IMG/VR virus record: IMGVR_UViG_3300048817_000099
From: an uncultured virus (IMG/VR IMGVR_UViG_3300048817_000099)
Lineage: Duplodnaviria > Heunggongvirae > Uroviricota > Caudoviricetes
Length of the DNA: 64,000 nucleotides
Direction: 5' to 3' (one strand)
Part shown: piece by piece, positions 3,401 through 57,200 of the stretch
Layout: each line of letters begins with the position of its first letter
How positions within the stretch are numbered: position 1 is the first letter of the stretch
Position numbers and translations under genes: made by a program
Notes under the pieces: generated by a model
What the model was told of the DNA's origin: nothing
Databases searched by the model: none
Seen by the model: only the letters and a program-made list of their open reading frames with translations

Positions 3401-4194
3401 CTCCGGCCAAACAGAGTCTCGACGAAATCCTCGCTGAGCACTCCGGGCCCGGTCGTGGACGGTCATCGACGGTCAACATGTCGGACCGGGAGGCCGCGGA
3501 GAAGCGTCATATCTATTCGGACCCACGCACGGGGGAACGGGTTATCGGCGTGACCACCGTTGTCGGCTGCTACGACTCTGGGGACAAAATCGGCGCGGGT
3601 GCCGGGGCCGCGGCGAAGCTCATCCGCTCTGGCGTGGATTACCGAAAGCAGTGGAACGAGAAGAAGGACCTCGGCTCCCGTATCCACGAACATGTGGCTA
3701 GATGGGCCGAGGGGAAGACCGCCGACGTGCTCGAAGAGGACATGGGCCACATGGACGCCTTCGAGAACTTCTGCCGAGCCGAGAAGCCTGAATGGATTGC
3801 CACCGAGCGCGCCGTGGTGGGTGACGGCTTCGGGGGGAAGCTCGACCTCATCGGGTGGTTGCCGAAGCGCGAGTCCTATTGGCTACTGGACGCAAAGTCG
3901 GGCCGGCCTTACAAGGCCGAGCTGCTGCTCCAACTCGCAGGGTATGCCGGGTCCGACGGGTTCATCGTCTATGACGAATCGGGCAAGGCCGTCGGCATCG
4001 AACCACTACCTCACATCGAACGGTGGGGCGGTCTGTATCTGAGTGGGGACGGGACGTACTTCCTGGCCGAACCGGACCTGCCGAGAAAGGACGACCCCCG
4101 CACCATCGCTGAAATCCAAGAGGACGCCATGTCGGCGTTCCGCCATCTCCTCGCCGTGAAGGCGTGGAGCAAGACCGTAGGGAAGGACCAATGA
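3397..4194 (+). CDS. PD-(D/E)XK exonuclease (RecB/Cas4-like phage recombination nuclease)
   Basis: GVTTV, GSRIH, E..V, GKLDL, LLDAKSG, QLAGY motifs. Confidence 0.8.
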   Translation: MTPAKQSLDEILAEHSGPGRGRSSTVNMSDREAAEKRHIYSDPRTGERVIGVTTVVGCYDSGDKIGAGAGAAAKLIRSGVDYRKQWNEKKDLGSRIHEHVARWAEGKTADVLEEDMGHMDAFENFCRAEKPEWIATERAVVGDGFGGKLDLIGWLPKRESYWLLDAKSGRPYKAELLLQLAGYAGSDGFIVYDESGKAVGIEPLPHIERWGGLYLSGDGTYFLAEPDLPRKDDPRTIAEIQEDAMSAFRHLLAVKAWSKTVGKDQ

Positions 4195-5027
4195 CCACCA
4201 CCGACCAGCCAGAAGAGGCACCGCCCCAACTGTGGACGCCGCCCGAGACACTGCCCAAGACGCCGTACAAGGCCCCAGAGGGCGACGACGCCCAGACAGC
4301 CGAGGGGAGGATTGAGGGGCCGCTCAAGGCGCTCAGAGAACCGTTTGACGCCAAGGTGGTCGGTATCCTGCCCAAGCCGTATCGCAAGGACTCGGAGAAG
4401 AAGAACTGCCCGGAGTGCGGTGGGTTCCATGGGATGCCCGCCGCTCATCTCAATTACGTCGGCCACGCTGCCGTCACTGACCGGCTTCTGACCGTCGATG
4501 CCCTGTGGAACTGGGAGCCGTTGGCCTACAACGACGACGGACTTCCACTGCTCGACGGCGCCGGCGGCATGTGGATCAAACTCACCGTGGCGGGGGTCAC
4601 CCGGCTCGGCTACGGCGACGGTGGGGACCCGAAGGTGCGAATCGGGGATGCCATTCGGAACGCGGCCATGCGGTTCGGTGTAGCCCTCGAGTTGTGGACA
4701 AAGGACGAACTCGAGTCTCTCATCGGCAACAATAAGGTCGCCACTCGTCGTAAGCCTCCCAAGAGTTCCACGCCGACGACCAAATCACGTCGAACCGCGC
4801 CGGCCACCGACCCGGCCACCGACGGTCAGGTCGGCATGACCGCCCAGCACCGCAACCGGCTCATCTCCCACCTCGGCCACCTCGACCCGCCCATTCTGGG
4901 AGGGGACGCACAGATGCTCAAGGTGCAGTCTTTGCTCAACCTGGACGAGGCGAAGCCGTTGGTCAAGCTGACTCAGGAAGAGGGCGAGAAGTTGTTTGAG
5001 ATCCTCGGCATAAAGGCCACGACGTGA
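4191..5027 (+). CDS. Rad52/Sak-like single-strand annealing protein
   Basis: HLNYVGHAAVTDRL...DAIRNAAMRFGVAL; located next to the exonuclease. Confidence 0.7.
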   Translation: MTTTDQPEEAPPQLWTPPETLPKTPYKAPEGDDAQTAEGRIEGPLKALREPFDAKVVGILPKPYRKDSEKKNCPECGGFHGMPAAHLNYVGHAAVTDRLLTVDALWNWEPLAYNDDGLPLLDGAGGMWIKLTVAGVTRLGYGDGGDPKVRIGDAIRNAAMRFGVALELWTKDELESLIGNNKVATRRKPPKSSTPTTKSRRTAPATDPATDGQVGMTAQHRNRLISHLGHLDPPILGGDAQMLKVQSLLNLDEAKPLVKLTQEEGEKLFEILGIKATT

Positions 5028-5821
5028 GTCGTTGGGCCGATGGCCCTTTGCTCGGATTTGACCTCGAGTCGACTTCTGCCGAACCGATTACCGCTCGCCC
5101 AGTGAGTTTTGCTCTTTGTCATTTTGACGCCGGCCAAATGGTCAAGACCCGATATGCGCTCATTGACCCTGAGATGCCGATACCCGAAGAGTCCACTCGC
5201 ATCCATGGAATCACCGACGAGATGGTCAAAGAACGCGGTGGCAGTCTGGAAAACTCGGTGGTCGGTATCGCTGGCGAACTGGTCGCCGCCGACGCGGCCG
5301 GCACGCCGATAGTCGGGTGCAACATCACGTTCGACCTCACGATTATCGACGCGTGCCTGCGGCGTATTGAGGACGGGGTGGGACTCCGAGAAGTGGGGTT
5401 CCAGGGCAACTGCATCGACTGCCAGGTTGTGGACCGCCGCATGGACAAGTTCCGCCGCGGCTCCCGCACCCTACTCGCCCTCTGCGCCCACTACGGGGTC
5501 GACCTCGGGGGGGCACACAACGCCGCCGCCGATGCCACGGCCTCGGTCCGGGTGGCGTTGGCCCTGGCCGAGAAGTACCCCGAGGTCGGGGGGATCGAGC
5601 CGTATCTTTTGCACGCGCAACAGAAGGCTTGGAGAGCCGAATGGGCGGTCGACTTCGCCCGCTACCGGGCCGAGAAGGGCCAGGAGCCGCTGGAGGAGAG
5701 TGCGGGGGACTGGCCGCTGATTGGCGAACGCTCCGAGGTTGCCTCTGAGTCCGCACAGACGGCCCCAGGAGGCGACGAAAGCCCCGAGGGGGACGGAAGT
5801 ACCGGAGGGGGGGAATCGTGA
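5024..5821 (+). CDS. DnaQ-like DEDDh 3'-5' exonuclease
   Basis: FDLEST, IHGITDE, NITFD, HNAAAD motifs. Confidence 0.9.
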   Translation: MSRWADGPLLGFDLESTSAEPITARPVSFALCHFDAGQMVKTRYALIDPEMPIPEESTRIHGITDEMVKERGGSLENSVVGIAGELVAADAAGTPIVGCNITFDLTIIDACLRRIEDGVGLREVGFQGNCIDCQVVDRRMDKFRRGSRTLLALCAHYGVDLGGAHNAAADATASVRVALALAEKYPEVGGIEPYLLHAQQKAWRAEWAVDFARYRAEKGQEPLEESAGDWPLIGERSEVASESAQTAPGGDESPEGDGSTGGGES

Positions 5822-33450: not shown

Positions 33451-35925
33451 GTGACCGCCACAATCGACCCATCCTCGGACGACCTCCGGTGGCTCATGAC
33501 TCTCGGCCGCGAGGAACTGTTCGACCTGCTGGCGGCGATGGAACCCCTGCGTCGGGTAGCACTGGTCGAGGCGATTGAGAGGTTGGCGCCGCCGCCGAAG
33601 CCGTGGGAACCGCTTCCTCACCAGGTTCCGCCGGATCCGGATGAGACATGGTCTGGCTGGCTCGCGCTAGCTGGCAGAGGGTCGGGCAAAACAAGCGGTG
33701 TCACCCACTGGCTCAACGACCACGCCAACGGCCCGGCATGTCTCGACGGCCCGATTCCGCATCGCATGGGCATCATCGCCCCGACCCTCGGTGACGCCTC
33801 GGCTTCTATCGTCCACGGTGACGACGGACTCAAGGTCATCAACCCGGAGGTCCGAGAGGTAACCCGCAAGGGTGGCACGGTGGTGCTCTGGCCGAACGGA
33901 GCCGAGGCGATGCTGTTCGGTGTTTACACTCGCAGTGATGTCGAGCGACTAAGGGCAAAAACAAATCGCTGTCTATCGGCAGGGACGCTCGTTGCTACCG
34001 AACGAGGACCGGTTCCGATTGAGAAAGTGACCACGTCCGATCGCGTTTGGACTCGGAATGGTCTGCGGCGAGTGTTGGCTGCTGGACCCACCGGTGTCAA
34101 GGAATGCATCGTGCTCACGGCAGAGGACGGCCGCCAGATTCGACTTACCCCCGACCACCTCATAAACGCAGGTCAGGAATGGAAACAAGCTGGACTTGCG
34201 AGTAGAGTTTGGGTATGCCACGACCTGTCATCGAATACAACGGACGGCGTTACTACCAACGCGAGGACGGCTACTACGGGAACAACAAAGGTGGCCTCTT
34301 GCATCGGGCCATCTACACCGATAACTACGGTCCGATTCCCCCAGGGAAGAACGTCCATCACATCGACCACGACAAGGAAAACAACGACCCGGCGAACCTC
34401 ACGCTCCTTACGCCGAAAGAGCACTGGCATGAGCATGGTGACGACCGACCAGCTGATTGGCACTCGCTCGGTGGTCGGAAAATGTGGGCCACCCGTCCGG
34501 TCGTCACGGTGGAATGCACAATTTGCGGGACGCCGTTTGACCAACGGAAGATACAACCAGCGCTTTATTGCTCCAAACCCTGTGCCAGAATCGGGCAGCA
34601 CAATCAATCCAGAGCCGAGGCAACTTGCGAGGTCTGCGGCACCGTGTTCGTCACCATCAAGTACACCCCGGCTCGCACTTGCTCCCCTCACTGTCGTGCA
34701 ATCTTCGCCTACCGGACTCGTCGAGCCAGTGTTCGACCTGACGGTGGAGACTGACCACGAGTTCTTCGCCAACGGGGTTCTCGTCCACAATTGCGCCGAT
34801 CTCAGGGAGGAAATTGCAGCCTGGCGCTACCTGCGGGATGGGATGGACCAAGCGGACTTCGGTCTACGCAAGGGCACTCACCGCTGGGTAGGAGCGACTA
34901 CCCCGAAGCCTAGACCAACCATCCGGAAATTGGTCAAGGACCCGCGGGTCGTACTGATCACTGCCACCACGGACGACAACCCGCACCTGGCCGCCGACAA
35001 GCGGGAGGAGCTCTACGAGAAGTTCGGCAATACGCGGCTCGGGAAGCAGGAGTTGGAAGCGAAAATCCTTGAGGACCAGGCCGGCGCTCTGTGGACCCAG
35101 GAACTGATTGAGCAGTATCGAGTGACCGAGGCAGACGTACCTCGCCTGATCCGGGTGCGGACCTACGTCGACCCCTCATGGGGCACGACCCACGATGAAT
35201 GCGGAATCGTCGTCTGTGGCCTTGGCGTCAATCGCCATCTCTATGTTCTGGCCGACCTGAGCAAACGAACCACACCGAGCGAGTGGGGAATGCTGGCCGC
35301 CATCGGTCGTATCCCTCCGCAACGGAAGGACGGTTCCTGGGTTTTAGAGCCTGATTGGGAGCCACGGGACTACTGCGGCAAGGTGAGTGAGTGCGTGGTG
35401 GCCGAAAAAAACTTCCAGGGTGAGCAGGTCCGCCTGGTCATGAAGCTGACTAGTCGGGATATCGGACAGCGCATTCGATTCGGGTGGGTCAATTCAAGCC
35501 AAGGCAAGCGGCTCCGAGCCGAACCGGTGGTGCAATTGTTCGAGCGAGGTAAGGTCCACATGGTCGGCTCGCATGAGCATCTCGAATGGCAACTCACGAA
35601 CTGGGTCCCACCAGAAGCCAGTGACGGAGAGACGGACCAGGGTGACCCCGTCGAGCACGAAGGCGGAGCCGAAGATGGACAAGACCCGTCGAAGTGGAGT
35701 CCCGACAGACTGGACGCGATGGTTTTTGGGTGCTCAGACCTGCTTATCGGCCCCAACTCCGGCACCGGCAAACTCGAAATCGCCGACGGCCGCGTCCCCC
35801 GTCCCTCCCTCGAACGCTCGGCCGGCCCGCAGTCGAAAGGGCCGCAGATTGGGGCGATTCCGATGAGCACGCGGCAGGGCAGAATTATTCGTGAGCAACA
35901 GGCGGAACGGAGACCTGCCGAGTAG
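33451..35925 (+). CDS. terL: Terminase large subunit with intein
   Basis: Walker A AGRGSGKT, ATTP motif, nuclease residues VDPS, EKN, SPDRLDA; intein at aa 174-447. Confidence 0.92.
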   Translation: MTATIDPSSDDLRWLMTLGREELFDLLAAMEPLRRVALVEAIERLAPPPKPWEPLPHQVPPDPDETWSGWLALAGRGSGKTSGVTHWLNDHANGPACLDGPIPHRMGIIAPTLGDASASIVHGDDGLKVINPEVREVTRKGGTVVLWPNGAEAMLFGVYTRSDVERLRAKTNRCLSAGTLVATERGPVPIEKVTTSDRVWTRNGLRRVLAAGPTGVKECIVLTAEDGRQIRLTPDHLINAGQEWKQAGLASRVWVCHDLSSNTTDGVTTNARTATTGTTKVASCIGPSTPITTVRFPQGRTSITSTTTRKTTTRRTSRSLRRKSTGMSMVTTDQLIGTRSVVGKCGPPVRSSRWNAQFAGRRLTNGRYNQRFIAPNPVPESGSTINPEPRQLARSAAPCSSPSSTPRLALAPLTVVQSSPTGLVEPVFDLTVETDHEFFANGVLVHNCADLREEIAAWRYLRDGMDQADFGLRKGTHRWVGATTPKPRPTIRKLVKDPRVVLITATTDDNPHLAADKREELYEKFGNTRLGKQELEAKILEDQAGALWTQELIEQYRVTEADVPRLIRVRTYVDPSWGTTHDECGIVVCGLGVNRHLYVLADLSKRTTPSEWGMLAAIGRIPPQRKDGSWVLEPDWEPRDYCGKVSECVVAEKNFQGEQVRLVMKLTSRDIGQRIRFGWVNSSQGKRLRAEPVVQLFERGKVHMVGSHEHLEWQLTNWVPPEASDGETDQGDPVEHEGGAEDGQDPSKWSPDRLDAMVFGCSDLLIGPNSGTGKLEIADGRVPRPSLERSAGPQSKGPQIGAIPMSTRQGRIIREQQAERRPAE
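33970..34791 (+). mobile_element. Class 1 intein (274 aa) in terminase
   Basis: CLSAGTLV block A, LTPDH block B, VFDLTV...FFANGVLVHN|C blocks F/G. Confidence 0.92.
34215..34754 (+). CDS. HNH endonuclease nested out of frame inside the terminase intein
   Basis: LHRAIY...GPIP...VHHIDHDKENNDPANL...EH..EH plus CxxC pairs; different frame from the intein. Confidence 0.85.
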   Translation: MPRPVIEYNGRRYYQREDGYYGNNKGGLLHRAIYTDNYGPIPPGKNVHHIDHDKENNDPANLTLLTPKEHWHEHGDDRPADWHSLGGRKMWATRPVVTVECTICGTPFDQRKIQPALYCSKPCARIGQHNQSRAEATCEVCGTVFVTIKYTPARTCSPHCRAIFAYRTRRASVRPDGGD

Positions 35926-35934
35926 TATCTCGGC

Positions 35935-36023
35935 GTCGGGCCGGAGGGTCGATCGGTTACCAACCTTGTAAGTTGGCCGAGGTGCTGCACACCTCAGCTT
36001 CCGGTCCCCGTGACACGCCCGAC
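35935..36023 (+). ncRNA. Y RNA-like element 1
   Basis: GTCGGGC(C)GGAGG...ACACGCCCGAC terminal stem with bulged C; internal GGTTACC. Confidence 0.7.
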
Positions 36024-36046
36024 ACTTCGTGCTAACGTTTACGTCG

Positions 36047-36117
36047 CTGGGCCGGAGGACAGTTCGGTTACCTTGCATGGACGCCTTCGGGCACTCCGGA
36101 CTCCATCACATGCCCAG
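36047..36117 (+). ncRNA. Y RNA-like element 2
   Basis: CTGGGC(C)GGAGG...GGTTACC...ACATGCCCAG. Confidence 0.7.
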
Positions 36118-36130
36118 TTCTTTCTCCGGT

Positions 36131-36262
36131 GCGAGCCGGAGGCAGTCGCTTATCGGAGCTGGAGGTCGCAGGGTTCGAATCCCTGCTCTGACGACCGAGT
36201 CGTCGGGTAGCGCAGTTTGGTAGCGCGCCAGCATTAAACAGCGGTCGCCACAACATGCTCGC
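36131..36262 (+). ncRNA. yrlA: YrlA-type Y RNA with permuted tRNA-like domain
   Basis: GCGAGC(C)GGAGG...ACATGCTCGC Ro stem; T arm GCAGGGTTCGAATCCCTGC precedes a loop-closed acceptor-like stem and D arm TAGCGCAGTTTGGTAGCGC. Confidence 0.88.
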
Positions 36263-36308
36263 CCCAAACGTTTGCGTTCCGAATCTCGGGGCGCTATGGT
36301 CGAAATCG

Positions 36309-36370
36309 CTGGGCCGAAGGCCGTGGGTTACCTTCATAAACGTATATCCCGCAGCCACCAACACGCCCAG
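36309..36370 (+). ncRNA. Y RNA-like element 4
   Basis: CTGGGC(C)GAAGG...GGTTACC...ACACGCCCAG. Confidence 0.7.
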
Positions 36371-36413
36371 TTCCTCGACCACCGCAGGGTGGTCCCAAGT
36401 GCAGGAGGACCAG

Positions 36414-38027
36414 ATGCGAGACCCCCTTTCCACCGTAGGCACCCGTGTGACCCCTCAGTCCGAGCGTGCCCACCCCGATCAGATCGCCAACTCGGCTGGC
36501 GGCTATTCGTTTCCCGTCGATGACTGGGGTCGCGCCCTGAGATTCCTCGTTCTGGGGACTGACGGCGGCACCTTCTACATCTCCGAGAAGGACCTGACCA
36601 TGCAGAACGCCGAGGTCGTCATCCGACTGGCCAACGGTGCCGAGGGGCGCAAGTTGGTCGACCTCATCGTCGACGTGTCCAAGAACGGTCGCGCTCCTCG
36701 CCAGAACCCCACTCTGTACGCCCTGGCCGCCTGCACGGCATCGCCGGACGTGAACACCCGCCGCGCCGCTCTGGCTGCCATCCCTGTCGTGTGCCGGACC
36801 GGCACCCACCTGTTCATCTTCGCCCGCTACGTCGAGCAGTTCCGTGGTTGGGGCCGGGGGCTCAAGCGGGCCATCGGCCAGTGGTACACGGAGAAGCCGG
36901 TCGGCGACGTGGCTTTCCAGGCCGTCAAGTACCGAAATCGTGAGGGCTGGTCTCATCGGGACATGCTCCGTCTGTCGCACCCGAAGACATCCGATCCCCA
37001 GCGCAAGGCGCTGTTCGACTGGGTCGTCCGTGGAGCCACCCTGCCGGAATCGCTTGAGCGGGACCTAGACGAGTGGGGCCTGCCGGGTACCGTGGTCGGG
37101 TACGAGGAGGCGCAGGTCGCCACCACGCCGTCGGAGTGGGCCCGGCTCGTCACCCAGTACAGCCTGCCCTGGGAGACACTGCCCGACGCCGCCCTCAACT
37201 CGCCAGAGGTCTGGGAGGCATTGCTGCCCCACATGGGCTACACGGCGCTCATCCGCCAGCTCGGCCGGCTATCTCGCATCGGCTTGGTCGCGCCCATGAG
37301 CTCGGCGACGAAGCTGGTGGCCGACCGTCTGGCCGATGGCGACGCACTCCGTAAGGCTCGAGTCCACCCGCTGTCCGTGCTGGTCGCTCTGGCTACCTAC
37401 GCGCAGGGTCACGGGTTCCGTGGGGCGTCGGCGTGGACTCCGGTGCCTCAGGTGGTCGCCGCGCTGGACGAGGCGTTCTACCTGGCTTTCGGAGCCATCG
37501 AGCCTGCTGGCAAGCGCACGCTGGTGGCTCTGGACGTGTCCGGCTCCATGACCATGGGCCAGGTGGCCAACTCGCCGTTGGCCCCGTTCCAGGCCGAAGG
37601 CGCCATGGCCATGACCGTGGTCAGAACCGAGCCGGAGTACTTCACCATGGCTTTCTCGGGCGGGTTCGTCTCGCTCCCTCTGACGCCCAAGCAGCGCCTG
37701 GACGACGTGCTCCGGACCATGGCCAACATGCCCTTCGACCGGACCGACTGTGCCGTGCCCATGGTGTGGGCCGAGCACAATCGAGTACCGGTGGATACGT
37801 TCCTGATTTACACGGACTCCGAGACGTGGGCCGGGACGATTCACCCCCACCAGGCGCTGGAGCGCTACCGGCAGAAGATGGGCATTCCGGCCCGTCTGGC
37901 CGTCATCGGCATGACCTCCAACGGGTTCAGCATCGCCAATTCGAATGATGCGGGCGAGCTGGACTGTGTCGGGTTCGACACGTCCACCCCCCAGCTACTG
38001 ACCGAGTTCTCCGCTGGGCGTTTGTAG
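36414..38027 (+). CDS. rsr: Ro60/Rsr (TROVE + vWA) RNA-binding protein
   Basis: NSAGGY.F, RFLVLGTDGGTFY, KYRNREGWSHRD, DVSGSM MIDAS, TDSETW; RBS aggagg. Confidence 0.95.
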   Translation: MRDPLSTVGTRVTPQSERAHPDQIANSAGGYSFPVDDWGRALRFLVLGTDGGTFYISEKDLTMQNAEVVIRLANGAEGRKLVDLIVDVSKNGRAPRQNPTLYALAACTASPDVNTRRAALAAIPVVCRTGTHLFIFARYVEQFRGWGRGLKRAIGQWYTEKPVGDVAFQAVKYRNREGWSHRDMLRLSHPKTSDPQRKALFDWVVRGATLPESLERDLDEWGLPGTVVGYEEAQVATTPSEWARLVTQYSLPWETLPDAALNSPEVWEALLPHMGYTALIRQLGRLSRIGLVAPMSSATKLVADRLADGDALRKARVHPLSVLVALATYAQGHGFRGASAWTPVPQVVAALDEAFYLAFGAIEPAGKRTLVALDVSGSMTMGQVANSPLAPFQAEGAMAMTVVRTEPEYFTMAFSGGFVSLPLTPKQRLDDVLRTMANMPFDRTDCAVPMVWAEHNRVPVDTFLIYTDSETWAGTIHPHQALERYRQKMGIPARLAVIGMTSNGFSIANSNDAGELDCVGFDTSTPQLLTEFSAGRL

Positions 38028-38098
38028 TAGCCTTGGGCGGTCACCACGAATAGGGAAACCTCCCCATTCGTGTTACGGGCACGAACAAGGAGGCTTCA

Positions 38099-38731
38099 GT
38101 GGTTCAACCTAGCAAAGCGACCGCCATCGGCGGCGAGAGTCCGACCAACGGTGCAGCCGAGGAAATCGGATTCGAGGAACCGTATTTCGTAACGGTCACC
38201 GTACGCGGCACGTCGGCCATCATCTTCCATGCTTGGAACAACGAAGCGGTAGCCGAGAAGTCGGCAGCTCGCAAGAACTCCAAGGCGAAGAAAACCGACA
38301 ACGTCGAGAGTTTCGTATACCGGACTCCCGAAGGCGAAATCGCCATCCCCGGCACCTACCTGAAAGGCTCGCTCTGCGACCCGCAGAAGGGGGCGGCGAA
38401 GTTTCTGCAGGATCCGAGGTCACCTCGGAAGTCGGCACTCGACCTGTTCAAGGCTGGCGTCATCGTCACGACTGAATATGCGTCGCTCGGGAAGACCGAG
38501 TGGGACTACGTAGACCAACGCCGGGTCGTCATTCAGCGGTCGGCCATCACCCGCTCGCGCCCTGCCTTCCTGGCCGGGTGGGAGGCGACCTTCGAGGTAA
38601 TGGTCCAGACACCGGAGTACATCGACCGGGACATGCTCCACGCGGTGATTGCTAACGCCGGTCGGCTGGTTGGGCTCGGCGATTTTCGGCCGACATACGG
38701 CCGGTTTCAGGTGATAAAGTTCGAGGGATAG
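38099..38731 (+). CDS. Solo Cas7/RAMP-like protein (210 aa)
   Basis: VTVRGTSAIIFH first strand, IAIPGTYLKGSL (RAMP IPG..LKG motif), C-terminal G-rich loop VGLGDFRPTYGRF; RBS aaggagg. Confidence 0.75.
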   Translation: MVQPSKATAIGGESPTNGAAEEIGFEEPYFVTVTVRGTSAIIFHAWNNEAVAEKSAARKNSKAKKTDNVESFVYRTPEGEIAIPGTYLKGSLCDPQKGAAKFLQDPRSPRKSALDLFKAGVIVTTEYASLGKTEWDYVDQRRVVIQRSAITRSRPAFLAGWEATFEVMVQTPEYIDRDMLHAVIANAGRLVGLGDFRPTYGRFQVIKFEG

Positions 38732-38737
38732 GGTAAG

Positions 38738-38867
38738 GCTGGGGTGCGCCGGGGTGCGCTTTGATACGCTTCGGTCCGGTTTGGTTCGCTTCGGTATGTC
38801 AAGGTTCGATAGGCCGTGGTGAGGTATGGGTACGGTCGGTCGGTTCTAAAAGGGATCGGCCGACCGT
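38738..38867 (+). ncRNA. GNY-NN pentamer array (18 units) with 3' hairpin; candidate guide RNA
   Basis: Strict 5-nt register from 38738 to 38827 with G at position 1 and a pyrimidine at position 3 in all 18 units; hairpin with G:U pairs at 38832-38867. Confidence 0.8.
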
Positions 38868-38887
38868 CGCGTGGTAACCTCATTTCC

Positions 38888-39430
38888 GTGCCAGATGAGG
38901 AAGCGGACAAACCGGAACCCGAACGCAGGATTCGCTTGGATGTTTTCCATCATTTCGATGGTCCGATTGAGATCGATCTGGACATCGGTGGGGATCTCAC
39001 ACTGGCCGGAGCGATTGGTATTACGCTGTTGCCGTTACCGGCTGTTCGGGCAGTCCTCGTTATCACCCCAACCCAAGGAGTAAATCAGGTGCCAGGACAA
39101 ATTTCGGTCGACACGGTCGGCGAAAGCGCAACAATTGAGTGGGTTGATGATCGCGGCGACACGAACGCGCCGGCTCCTGCCGGGGCAGTCGTCACCTTCA
39201 CCAGCGACAATCCCGCCGTGGCCACCGTCGCCACCGACGCCACCAACCCCCTCCAGGGTGACGTGACCCCGGTAGCCGAGGGCACGGCCAACATCGGCGC
39301 CACCATCGCGGATGCCTCGGGCAACCCGATTCTGGAGCCGGACGGCGTGACCCCCTTCACCGTGGCCTCGGTCGCCGTGACGGTGGGCCCGGGCGCTGCC
39401 GACAGCGCCACGCTCGTCCTCAGCGTCTAG
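38888..39430 (+). CDS. Ig-like (Big-2 type) domain protein; alternative start GTG 39089 with RBS
   Basis: VTFTSDNPAVATV...VTPVAEGTANI; TAACCT upstream of 38888; AAGGAG upstream of 39089. Confidence 0.7.
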   Translation: MPDEEADKPEPERRIRLDVFHHFDGPIEIDLDIGGDLTLAGAIGITLLPLPAVRAVLVITPTQGVNQVPGQISVDTVGESATIEWVDDRGDTNAPAPAGAVVTFTSDNPAVATVATDATNPLQGDVTPVAEGTANIGATIADASGNPILEPDGVTPFTVASVAVTVGPGAADSATLVLSV

Positions 39431-39555
39431 ACAGGTCTCGCCTCTCCTCCTCCGCTGTGGGAAGCGAGCAAGGCACCAGCCCCGGTTGACTCTTCCGCCA
39501 AGGGTCGCCGGGGTTGGTGCGCGAGTGGAGATAGATTGCGCTAACGTTTACGAAC

Positions 39556-39819
39556 ATGAGCCATCGCGCCGCCCGCAAGATACGCCAGGACACGATTCCG
39601 GTCCCGCCGTCCCCCGGCCCCGGCCCGAACAAGCACTTGGCCATCCACCTCGGTCATCGGTTCCGGTTCGCCACCACACGCCGCCTGAGCCGCCGCAAGC
39701 ACCCCCTGAGGCGCCGAGGGCGGGGATACGACCGCCCAGGCACTACGAAGCCCTGGAGCCGGCCTGAGGCCCGTCTGAGGGGTAAGCGACAGAAGCTGGC
39801 GCGGAGGGGGAACCGGTGA
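39556..39819 (+). CDS. Small basic protein (leaderless)
   Basis: ATG 8 nt after the motif TAACGT; GTGA-coupled to the next ORF. Confidence 0.5.
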   Translation: MSHRAARKIRQDTIPVPPSPGPGPNKHLAIHLGHRFRFATTRRLSRRKHPLRRRGRGYDRPGTTKPWSRPEARLRGKRQKLARRGNR

Positions 39820-54200: not shown

Positions 54201-57200
54201 TGGCGGGCAAAGAGCTCAGTACCCGCAACCGCCGGTTCCTACAGAGACTCCAGAGGCAGGAGAAGCCGGTCGCTCACCGGGCGTTGACGGCGGCGGCCAT
54301 GCCCATCAACCTGGCCAGCAAGACAGAGGCGCGGCGGATGCGGGTGTTGCGTCAGGGCTGGCAGAATGACGCGGCCGCCTACGCGGATTCCATACCTGAG
54401 CTGAGTTTTGCTTATGAGTTCCTTGGTAACGCGTCGAGTCGAATGCGGTACTTCCCCGCCTGTGTCAATCCCGAGGAGCCGGACGGACCGCCCATTCCCA
54501 TCGCCGAGGTCCCCGGTATCCCCCAAGGCGTTGTTGACGTGGCCCACCAGGCCATGAGTGCTCTTGGTATCGGTCGCCAGGCGGTGGCTCCGCTGCAGAA
54601 GTCATTGAGTTGGCAACTGGGCGTTCCCGGAGAAGCGTTCCTAGTGGGGATGAACGACCCGCAGGACGGCGACGAGCAATGGTCCATCCGCTCCATCGAC
54701 GAGTTCATGATCTTCGATGACACTTACAAGTTGCGCGAGGTCCCGCTCGACCCGCAGGGCACGCTTGGGTGGATACCACTTGACCCGGCGACCACCTATG
54801 CGGCGCGGCTTTGGAATCCGTGGCATCGCTTCAACAAACTGGCCACCAGTCCGATGCGCGCTCTGCTCGACGTGAGCGAGGAACTGTTACTCCTGAGCCG
54901 TGATGTCCGTTCGGTAGCTCGTAGCCGTCTGACCGGCGGCGGCATCCTCAAGATTCCCGAGGGCCTGCGCATGGCCCCCATCAACGAGGACGACGATGAC
55001 CCCGAGTCCGAGGCGTGGTTCGGTCGGTTCGCTGAGGCGATGATGACCCCCATCTCCGACGATGGCGTGGCCTCTGCCGTGGTGCCCATCGGCATCAGCG
55101 GCGACCCCGAGTCGCTGGCCCAGCTCGACCACCTCATCATCGACCGGCCCTACTCGCCGTTGGCCATCGAACTGCGAGCCGAAGCTATTGGGAGAATCGC
55201 CACTGGACTCGATTTCCCCCGGGAGATTCTCGAGGGAATTGGTGACGTTAACCACTGGCAACAGGATGAATTGACCGAAGTGTTCATTCAGGGGAAGGGA
55301 TGGTGTCGCCATCAGCAGGTGGAGGTTGGAGATCAGGTTCTAGCGTTCCATGTTGAGGGTGGCACTACTAGTTATGAGACGGTTGCCGAAGTGCTGCGGG
55401 AAGAGGTGGTCGACCGGGACGTGGTTTCGATGGAGGGCCGCTATCATTCATCACTGACCTCGTACGAGCACCGTTGGCCCGTATGGCACGGCGACCGATT
55501 CGTGTTCTGCCAGAGCAAGGATCTGATTAACAACCCACAATCAGGTCCGAACAAGGCATATATGGTGCTTGGCGCTCCATACCAGTCGCCCGTGACGCCA
55601 GAATTCACCGACGCTGAAGTGGCCGTGATGGCGTGGTTGAGCACAGATGCTGATGTGTACCGGCCGTGGGGCGGGCGAGAGCGCCTGCGGATTCGCCAGC
55701 GAAATGCCGAGAACGTCGCAGCTCTCCGAGGCATAGTCGCCGGGTTCGACCATGTCGAGCGCCATGATGAGTCGGCGGAAGTGACCGTTTTCGAGTTGAC
55801 AGCCGATGAGACGGAACGGTGGCTAAGTCTCGGCGAGCGCTTAGCAACTCGGTGGGTACCGACATTGTCCGTCATCCAACGGTTCACCCGGTCGCAACTG
55901 GAGTTGTTCCTGGTGACGTGTGAGCGGGCGAACGGCGGCACAAAAGCGAAGCGAACCGTATTTGCCATTGACCCGGCCCGGCTGGCTCCGGTTGAGCACG
56001 CCGCGGTTCTAGCTGGTTATCGGACGACGATTCGCCAGCGCAACCAGCAACACGGCTTCGGTACCGAGCCGGTGTGGCGGATCACATGGGGTACCCGAAC
56101 CCTGTTCGCACCCAACCGTGAGCATCACATCACGGAGACCACTTACACGGGGACGCTGTGGTGTCTGAGCGTTCCGGTGGGCAAGTCGTTCCTAGCTCGG
56201 CGCAATGGTCATACGTTCTTCACTGGCAACTCTGGGATGCTCGTCAGCGACGAAACGTTCCGCCATCACATCGAACCGCAGGTAATCAAGCAGGTCGACT
56301 GCATGAGCGCGGGCTATCTCCGAGTCTGGTTGACGGCGGCGGGCATCCCGAAGTACTGGGTCGACCGTATCTGCGTTTGGTACGACCCGGTCGACCTCAT
56401 CTCCAAGCCTGACCCGATGGCCAACGCCGTGCTCCTACACGACCGGTTCGCCATCAGCAACGAGGCGCTCCGCGATGCCGGTGGGTTCAAGGAAAGCGAC
56501 CAGCCCGGTGCACTCGAAATCGAGTTCCGGATGCTGCAGAAGACCCGCACGTTCCCCCCCAACATGGTGGAGGCCATCTTCCACAAGGTCGACCCCGAGC
56601 TGGCCTTCCCGCCCATCAATACCAGCGGCACTATCCCCGGCATCGGGCCGCAGGGCGAGATTCCAGCCGAGGCCCCGCAACCGGCTGCGCCAGCCGCCCC
56701 AGCGTTGCCACCCAGCGCCCCTCTACCTGCTTCCCCGGCCCCGGCACTGCCACCCGAGGCCAGCGCCACACCCCCGATGACCGCGCCGACAGAAGCCTTC
56801 GCCACCCCACCGAACCCGACCCACGTCCGCCTGTCCCGCAAACTCACCGAAATCGACAGCCAGCTCCGGGCCCGTATCCAGGTGGCCGCTTGTGCGGCTA
56901 TGACCCGGCTGTTGGACAAGGCCGGCGCCAAGCTCCGGACCCGGGCCGCCGACCGGAAGTTCAAGGACAGCGAAGTCAAGACCTTGGTGGCGGGACAGCC
57001 CGACAACCGCCTGGTGGCCTCCACCATCGGCCCGGCCCTGGTGGCTTCCCTCGGCTTCACAACCGCTCCTGAGCTACTGAGTGCGGACTGGAGCGAACTG
57101 AAGGCCCAGTTCATGGCCTGGACCGAGGCGGCCCAGAAACAGGCGCTCCGGGTGGCCATGCAACTGGCCGGCATCACCACCGAGGACGAGTCGTACCAGG

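Follow-up and report, generated by a model that had tools for sequence, protein, structure and literature searches.

VIPR is a CRISPR-like DNA silencer that was first described in 2026 from enterobacterial and Pseudomonas phages (bioRxiv 10.64898/2026.04.26.720920). Vipr is built from an RRM core, a glycine-rich loop and a thumb. According to that preprint, it is a stand-alone RAMP of roughly 20 kDa, and its vrRNAs hold 9-16 GGY/NN pentamers ahead of a structured 3' tail. Also allowed were a "related consensus" and internal degeneracy (10.64898/2026.04.26.720920). The NN dinucleotides pair with double-stranded DNA by a "1 nt skip rule", and the skip is usually at the wobble position. A vap gene is typical but not obligatory, and systems with a single vrRNA are mentioned in the same text. 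Rival phages and satellites are the natural targets reported, with an NN match of at least 80% as the calling cut-off, and as reported there no guide matched its own contig at that level (10.64898/2026.04.26.720920). In the structures described, each GGY is sequestered by a Vipr protomer, which presents the NN, and the third base of the target is flipped into a pocket (10.64898/2026.04.26.720927). A further preprint describes guides that target the VIPR loci of relatives and match their own locus less well, as well as a clean deletion of vipr-vap1, 1,114 bp long, that sets relatives apart (10.64898/2026.10.15.759431). Lower self than non-self match scores are described in the published VIPR surveys as autoimmunity avoidance.

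The DNA analyzed here, referred to as the window, is a 64-kb (64,000 nt) stretch of an uncultured phage genome with a GC content of 64%. Genes for a primase, helicase, methyltransferase, large terminase, portal, protease-like protein and major head protein were found, nearly all on the plus strand. The cassette of interest lies between a Ro60 gene and an Ig-like gene, 3' of the large terminase gene. The features are as follows.

33451-35925: large terminase gene.
36255-38027: Ro60 gene (TROVE + Ro60 vWA), directly upstream of the cassette.
38032-38885 (no strand assigned): predicted VIPR cassette of 854 bp with the vipr gene and one vrRNA, present in the window and absent from the sibling contig L084.
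38099-38731, plus strand: predicted vipr gene, encoding a 210-aa stand-alone RAMP (Cas7-like) protein.
38738-38832, plus strand: predicted vrRNA repeat tract of 18 G-N-Y/NN pentamers (38738-38827) and then a degenerate 19th unit.
38832-38867, plus strand: predicted 3' tail hairpin of the vrRNA, with a 16-bp stem and an AAAA loop (RNA fold).
38888-39430, plus strand: Ig-like (Big_2-type) gene with the near-cognate site inside it (Pfam, homologues and L084 alignment).
39125-39178, plus strand: near-cognate, sub-threshold site for the vrRNA in the resident Ig-like gene (27/36 NN bases, wobble skip).

The cassette contains vipr and the vrRNA only, with no further ORF and no vap gene. The Ro60 and Ig-like genes are not vap genes, because in the sibling L084, which lacks the cassette, they lie side by side. 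No Rfam family (at gathering thresholds), Y-RNA or tRNA was predicted by Rfam and ARAGORN in the whole 64-kb window. A scan of 37900-39000 for consensus promoters and terminators gave nothing useful. A period-5 stretch of 10 units with 8 G-N-Y matches was seen within a 1209-aa portal-like gene (55970-56019). It is probably a chance occurrence, as comparable weak calls were made far from vipr in several other loci.

The 210-aa protein matched no Pfam family, and its only match was the unannotated phrog_4652. At E ≤ 1e-3 it had 5885 homologues, among them relatives of 80-87% identity. An AlphaFold (AF2) model built on 40 homologues had a pLDDT of 85.1 and a pTM of 0.77. When this model was searched against the PDB with Foldseek, 108 matches were found at E ≤ 1e-3, the top ones being type VII Cas7 and Csm3 chains (E 5e-7). 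A C-terminal glycine-rich motif was invariant in the 40 aligned homologues. By its modeled fold the protein is a Cas7-like RAMP. The family profile was compared by hhalign to a gene of the Escherichia phage SUSP1, in which VIPR was studied by experiment (NC_028808.2, 28474-29061(-)), with a probability of 97.7% and an E value of 1.3e-12 over 154 columns. The SUSP1 gene encodes 195 aa, shares the C-terminal glycine-rich motif and is labeled "hypothetical" in its record. G-N-Y/NN arrays are present on both sides of it. Its size and these arrays suggest that it is the SUSP1 vipr gene. A locus search with the single Vipr protein found no loci in viral_contigs and one weak, irrelevant match in genome_contigs.

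The array begins at 38738 on the plus strand, 7 nt past the vipr stop codon and on the same strand as vipr, and ends about 60 nt upstream of the Ig-like start GTG 38888. It is comprised of 18 consecutive 5-nt units, each a G-N-Y triplet followed by a variable dinucleotide. The triplets were GGT (nine), GCT (four), GCC (two), GAT (two) and GTC (one). Strict GGY is found in 9/18 units and G-N-Y in 18/18, and the degenerate 19th unit is GGGTA. The 18 dinucleotides and their reverse complements were identical to those listed in an earlier interpretation of this DNA made without database searches (the sequence-only reading). The region 38732-38890 had a predicted minimum free energy of -68.1 kcal/mol (z -3.1) and none of 200 shuffles folded as well. 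By analogy with the published architecture of a repeat tract plus tail, the hairpin at 38832-38867 would be the vrRNA tail. Judged on their sequences, the array and the 210-aa gene belong to the published VIPR kind. The mechanism proposed by the sequence-only reading is essentially the published VIPR mechanism, and the kind of system is already known.

Two other classes were considered for the array. Class 1 CRISPR-Cas was ruled out, as no CRISPR-size repeats were found around the vipr gene and the cassette has no further ORF. TRAP is a ring protein which binds (G/U)AG triplets at a spacing of 2-3 nt. A TRAP-type RNA-binding attenuation leader was ruled out because the triplets here are G-N-Y rather than (G/U)AG and the adjoining protein is a predicted RAMP rather than TRAP.

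The central claim of the sequence-only reading was that the guide, with one base skipped after each pair, matches 39125-39178 of the neighboring Ig-like gene. The same match was obtained here, at 27/36 bases with 11/18 pairs perfect. The site lies about 295 nt past the last array unit (300 bp had been given). Approximately 128,000 positions were scored for the guide in the 64-kb window. The match at 39125 had the top score on both strands and the runner-up scored 22. Best scores at skips of 0, 2 and 3 were 21, 21 and 20, respectively, with the array self-match at skip 3 left out. The own-sequence maximum for the guide is thus 27/36 (75%) within the 64 kb scanned of the ~74-kb contig. Shuffling of the NN order, which the sequence-only reading had put forward as a null, was carried out at skip 1 over the whole window. 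None of 2000 shuffled guides reached 27, and the highest score, 26, was reached once. With skips of 0-3 all allowed, none of 500 NN-order shuffles reached 27. The skipped base is always codon position 3, as had been claimed, because 39125 is 237 nt (79 codons) into the frame from GTG 38888. Recognition with a 1-nt skip at the wobble position is thereby supported statistically. The conservative amino-acid substitutions to which the earlier interpretation also pointed are irrelevant to a code that is read in nucleic acid.

The match is far beyond chance. A chance likeness between an unrelated repeat and a compositionally similar Asp/Glu/Gly/Ala/Pro coding stretch might be favored by the guide ending in GC CC GC CC and containing several GA pairs, which are common codon starts at 64% GC. 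The shuffled guides had this same composition and still fell short of 27, the second-best score in the window was well below at 22, and the signal occurred only at skip 1 and in the adjacent gene. This explanation is considered highly improbable.

Alleles of the Ig-like gene were compared to the guide. The resident gene matched the Pfam Big-like/Big_2 families just below and around the cut-offs, and its protein had 99 homologues. These were screened by the first two bases that their codons could have. Six of the 99 were above the upper bound of 28 for the resident protein, the highest being 30. Allele DNA was taken from metagenome and viral contigs. The expectation that some homologues would match the guide better than the resident 27/36 was borne out, with four distinct alleles doing so at the homologous site and in frame.

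L084 allele, 2593-2646: NN match 30/36 (83%).
L089 allele, the same as that of L113: NN match 29/36 (81%).
L085 allele, the same as that of L111: NN match 28/36.
L090 allele: NN match 28/36.

The first two of these are distinct natural alleles above the 80% cut-off. Over the 5'-most 14 units of the guide, the L084 allele matched 27/28 bases. It had six mismatches in all, five of which fell within the last four units before the tail. The near-perfect target that had also been expected did not turn up in the contig collections searched. The exact gapped pattern of all 18 pairs had no matches in viral_contigs, nor did that of the 12 tail-side pairs. The exact pattern of 13 of the 14 pairs at the guide 5' end had no matches in viral_contigs and genome_contigs. 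The best target in the collections searched was the 83% match in L084.

Contig L084 (3 kb) is also informative on the boundaries of the cassette. By blastn, L084 13-2337 aligned to window 35683-38031 at 93.9% identity and L084 2345-3027 aligned to window 38886-39558 at 81.6%. These blocks are 7 nt apart in L084, and no vipr match or array was found in that contig. Vipr and the vrRNA thus form one indel of 854 bp (38032-38885). With 3 kb of the sibling covered by L084, its phage may carry a VIPR elsewhere. The breakpoint in homology also supports the start of the Ig-like gene at GTG 38888. Exactly at the cassette, identity to L084 falls to 81.6% for the right flank (Ig-like gene), compared to 93.9% for the left flank (Ro60). 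This mosaic boundary could reflect recombination at the insertion point.

At bases where the resident and L084 alleles differ, the guide follows L084. Of the nine guide-read bases mismatched in the resident allele, seven differ in L084 and five of these agree with the guide. Only two of the 27 guide-matched resident bases differ in L084 (Fisher p 1.4e-4). Differences between the two Ig-like proteins (window 38888-39430 and L084 2347-2898) run through the first ~96 residues, and a single one is left from "APAPAG" onward. The guide site spans the border at which this variable half ends. Across the whole gene 51/181 third codon positions differ. Divergence at codon positions 1 and 2 was 9/36 in the target window compared to 37/326 in the rest of the gene (Fisher p 0.03). 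Other 18-codon windows of the gene had up to 17/36 such differences. As divergence peaks outside the target window, no claim of selected escape is made for the resident allele.

The guide most likely silences the Ig-like gene of co-infecting sibling phages while sparing its own genome, with the array serving as the vrRNA of a minimal VIPR system; we hold this reading with good though not full confidence. The proposal that the guide is aimed at a related phage's allele of the neighboring gene is supported by the sibling L084 score of 30/36 compared to 27/36 for the resident. From the published VIPR mechanism, Vipr protomers would polymerize along the vrRNA, each sequestering one G-N-Y triplet and presenting the next two bases. 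The presented dinucleotides would pair with double-stranded DNA, with every third target base flipped out. Together the 18 dinucleotides would define a gapped site of 53 nt within the Ig-like gene. Among known alleles, those of related phages come closest to the guide (L084 at 83%, L089/L113 at 81%), with the resident allele at 75%, just under the 80% cut-off. The bound complex would silence transcription of the sibling Ig-like gene and, by roadblock, of the same-strand genes downstream. The vrRNA would be expressed in this phage and would act on the rival, and binding would occur at 30/36 and not at 27/36. With L084 ahead of the resident allele by just 3 bases, and with the available text of the VIPR preprints yielding nothing on mismatch tolerance, binding of the rival with sparing of the carrier genome stays a proposal.

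The lack of any target above 83% in the collections searched could also be explained by a relic guide, a vrRNA that used to fit an ancestral or rival allele but has drifted since. The similarity would then be historical, with no target today. Half of the triplets deviate from GGY, in keeping with such decay. The vipr ORF is nevertheless intact and strongly conserved, G-N-Y is kept in all 18 units and the predicted tail hairpin is intact. The cassette, array included, was unchanged in contigs of independent DNA runs (two DNA runs), and the two distinct alleles above the cut-off also argue against a relic. We regard this explanation as quite unlikely. Among contigs from four sequencing runs none joined across the cassette, giving no evidence of its absence. 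RNA-library contigs covered part of the Ig-like gene (38948-39454) and not vipr or the vrRNA, and are uninformative on expression either way. Exactly this part was covered by one contig of 549 nt from a metatranscriptome library, with adapters at both ends, which could derive from a transcript or from DNA carried over into the library.

The arrangement was compared across relatives of Vipr. Eighty IMG/VR viral loci were gathered with the Vipr family alignment. An array was called where G-N-Y recurred at period 5 over 8 or more units, with 80% or more of them conforming. An array was present on the strand of the vipr homologue and within 1.5 kb of it in 74/80 loci. Across the 80 loci 199 plus-strand arrays of 8 to 114 units were called, along with 40 minus-strand calls, 38 of which were the same arrays read from the other strand. 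When the 74 related loci are compared, the triplet is kept and the NN differs. The G-N-Y detector found no array in six of the 80 loci (L005, L011, L029, L047, L063 and L073). By eye, L005 had degenerate pentamers of GGN type downstream of the gene, and variant repeat consensuses therefore exist in the clade.

Phage DSL-LC04 (L001, OR003939.1) had the same arrangement, with more than 30 GGY/NN units at 4650-4850 upstream of its Vipr homologue (4965-5582). This homologue is labeled "helix-turn-helix transcriptional regulator" in GenBank and the VIPR locus is unannotated. DSL-LC04 is a cultured phage, and a 147-aa gene which overlaps the end of its Vipr homologue is a possible vap. Weaker Vipr matches were seen in Pseudomonas phages LESphi2 and Medea1. 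Very long arrays were observed in L051 (4540-7458, arrays of 83 + 114 + 98 + 51 units round one vipr gene), L038 (7136-7630, 99 units) and L041 (3119-3615). A single vrRNA has 9-16 units, and arrays so far above that size presumably hold several guides. Well-formed arrays were also seen 1.7 to 7.4 kb from vipr in L053 (2561-2630, 14/14 units), L052 (3606-3906) and L061 (4-73). These are candidate solo or distal vrRNAs.

Guides across the family were searched against their own loci. The arrays found in the window, in DSL-LC04 and in the 80 viral loci were divided into 286 guide segments. Each was scored against its own locus with arrays masked and with 200 shuffles per guide. At skip 1, six of the 286 guides had a best match which was reached by 0/200 shuffles, and 6/6 of these matches were no more than 1.5 kb from vipr. 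Skips of 0, 2 and 3 gave zero, one and three such guides, respectively, none of them near vipr. In a run with 100 shuffles per guide, 8/9 significant matches were near vipr compared to 59/256 for unremarkable guides (Fisher p 8.6e-5). For nearly all of the near-vipr matches the skipped base was codon position 3 of a long plus-strand ORF. Codon composition may contribute to this phase preference. Two of the near-vipr matches fall inside vipr itself. The DSL-LC04 guides gave no outlier against their own 61.5-kb genome at skips 0-4. When the 286 segments were scored against all loci (1.48 Mb), short guides reached 0.75-0.9 by chance at every skip, and this set therefore cannot discriminate.

In locus L022 an 18-unit guide (3803-3892) matched the first 18 codons from the ATG of the adjoining convergent gene (3958-4011(-)) at 25/36 in wobble-skip register. 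Similar sub-threshold matches in neighboring genes were seen in L037 and L031. By statistics alone, the 1-nt-skip rule is recovered independently in this Vipr clade. The family results suggest that guides aiming at the neighborhood of their own cassette in relatives are common. This pattern is in agreement with bioRxiv 10.64898/2026.10.15.759431.

Matches near the cassette could also be read as self-regulation. The Vipr-vrRNA complex would then bind its own Ig-like gene through the 27/36 match and tune or time the downstream genes, with no rival involved. In the window the best match is in cis, 295 nt from the guide, and five other loci have significant sub-threshold own-locus matches next to vipr. 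Nothing on mismatch tolerance in the VIPR texts available speaks against binding at 75%. Against this, alleles of other phages match the guide better than the resident allele, and at the resident mismatches the guide follows the sibling. The published surveys, as far as their available text goes, found no self matches of at least 80% and describe autoimmunity avoidance. Self-regulation is thus considered unlikely, and silencing of the Ig-like gene in sibling phages remains the preferred reading.

Free-standing phage homing endonucleases, in marker exclusion, provide a precedent for such an arrangement. A small cassette recognizes a site near its own insertion point in cassette-free relatives, and the linked resident site is diverged. 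An extension of the preferred reading is that minimal VIPR cassettes are selfish linkage units, in which the guide is aimed at a flank gene of cassette-free or differently armed siblings and a diverged, sub-threshold allele travels along with the cassette. This is offered tentatively, as a possibility more doubtful than not. It is supported by the existence of an empty-site sibling, by the drop in identity from 94% to 82% exactly at the cassette and by the location within 1.5 kb of vipr of all six significant skip-1 own-locus matches among the 286 guide segments. If true, mixed infections would favor the cassette together with its flank, as a silencing analogue of homing-endonuclease marker exclusion.

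This locus, in an uncultured high-GC phage of peat/permafrost, is a clean natural case of VIPR. One protein, one guide and no accessory gene make up the smallest layout that VIPR could have. The empty-site sibling gives the cassette boundaries to the base and the sibling allele indicates the aim of the guide. The 1-nt-skip rule has been recovered statistically, and independently, in a distant Vipr clade, and the family matches point to a possibly general habit in which guides aim at the flank of their own cassette in relatives. A large protein family can now be recognized as VIPR, having 5885 matches, no Pfam family and an unannotated PHROG.

The locus resembles class 1 CRISPR Cas7 backbone filaments (Csm3, type VII Cas7) in the predicted fold and in a guide-target pairing which is periodically interrupted. 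Unlike class 1 CRISPR there is no repeat-spacer array and there are no other cas genes in the cassette. The guide period is 5 nt with 2 informative bases here compared to 6 nt with 5 in class 1 CRISPR. As in homing-endonuclease marker exclusion, the guide site is beside the insertion point and the resident site is diverged. Unlike homing endonucleases, no nuclease is present, and published Vipr of the minimal kind binds and silences rather than cuts.

Closest are the VIPR systems themselves. As in the type II exemplar SUSP1, a small stand-alone RAMP is encoded, and it is homologous to the array-flanked SUSP1 gene. The same-strand pentamer array, in which the triplet is fixed and the NN varies, is shared with VIPR, as is a structured 3' tail (predicted here) behind it. 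Also shared are the 1-nt-skip match in codon register, the best natural match in another phage and a self match below 80%. Unlike SUSP1-type VIPR, the cassette has no vap gene and only one vrRNA, and the tail is predicted as a plain hairpin, where that of SUSP1 is a pseudoknot. The 18 units exceed the 9-16 of published vrRNAs, and the triplet is G-N-Y, with GGY in 9/18 units, rather than the GGY consensus. Unlike published VIPR carriers, the carrier here is a high-GC phage of peat/permafrost.

Compared to the relative-targeting vrRNAs described in 10.64898/2026.10.15.759431, the match to the carrier's own genome is again lower than the match to relatives. A clean indel of the vipr module is likewise present, of 1,114 bp there and 854 bp here. 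The targets described in that preprint are vipr, vrRNAs or satellites, whereas here the target is a flanking structural-type Ig-like gene. Also unlike that description, the better-matching allele here belongs to a carrier without the module (10.64898/2026.10.15.759431).
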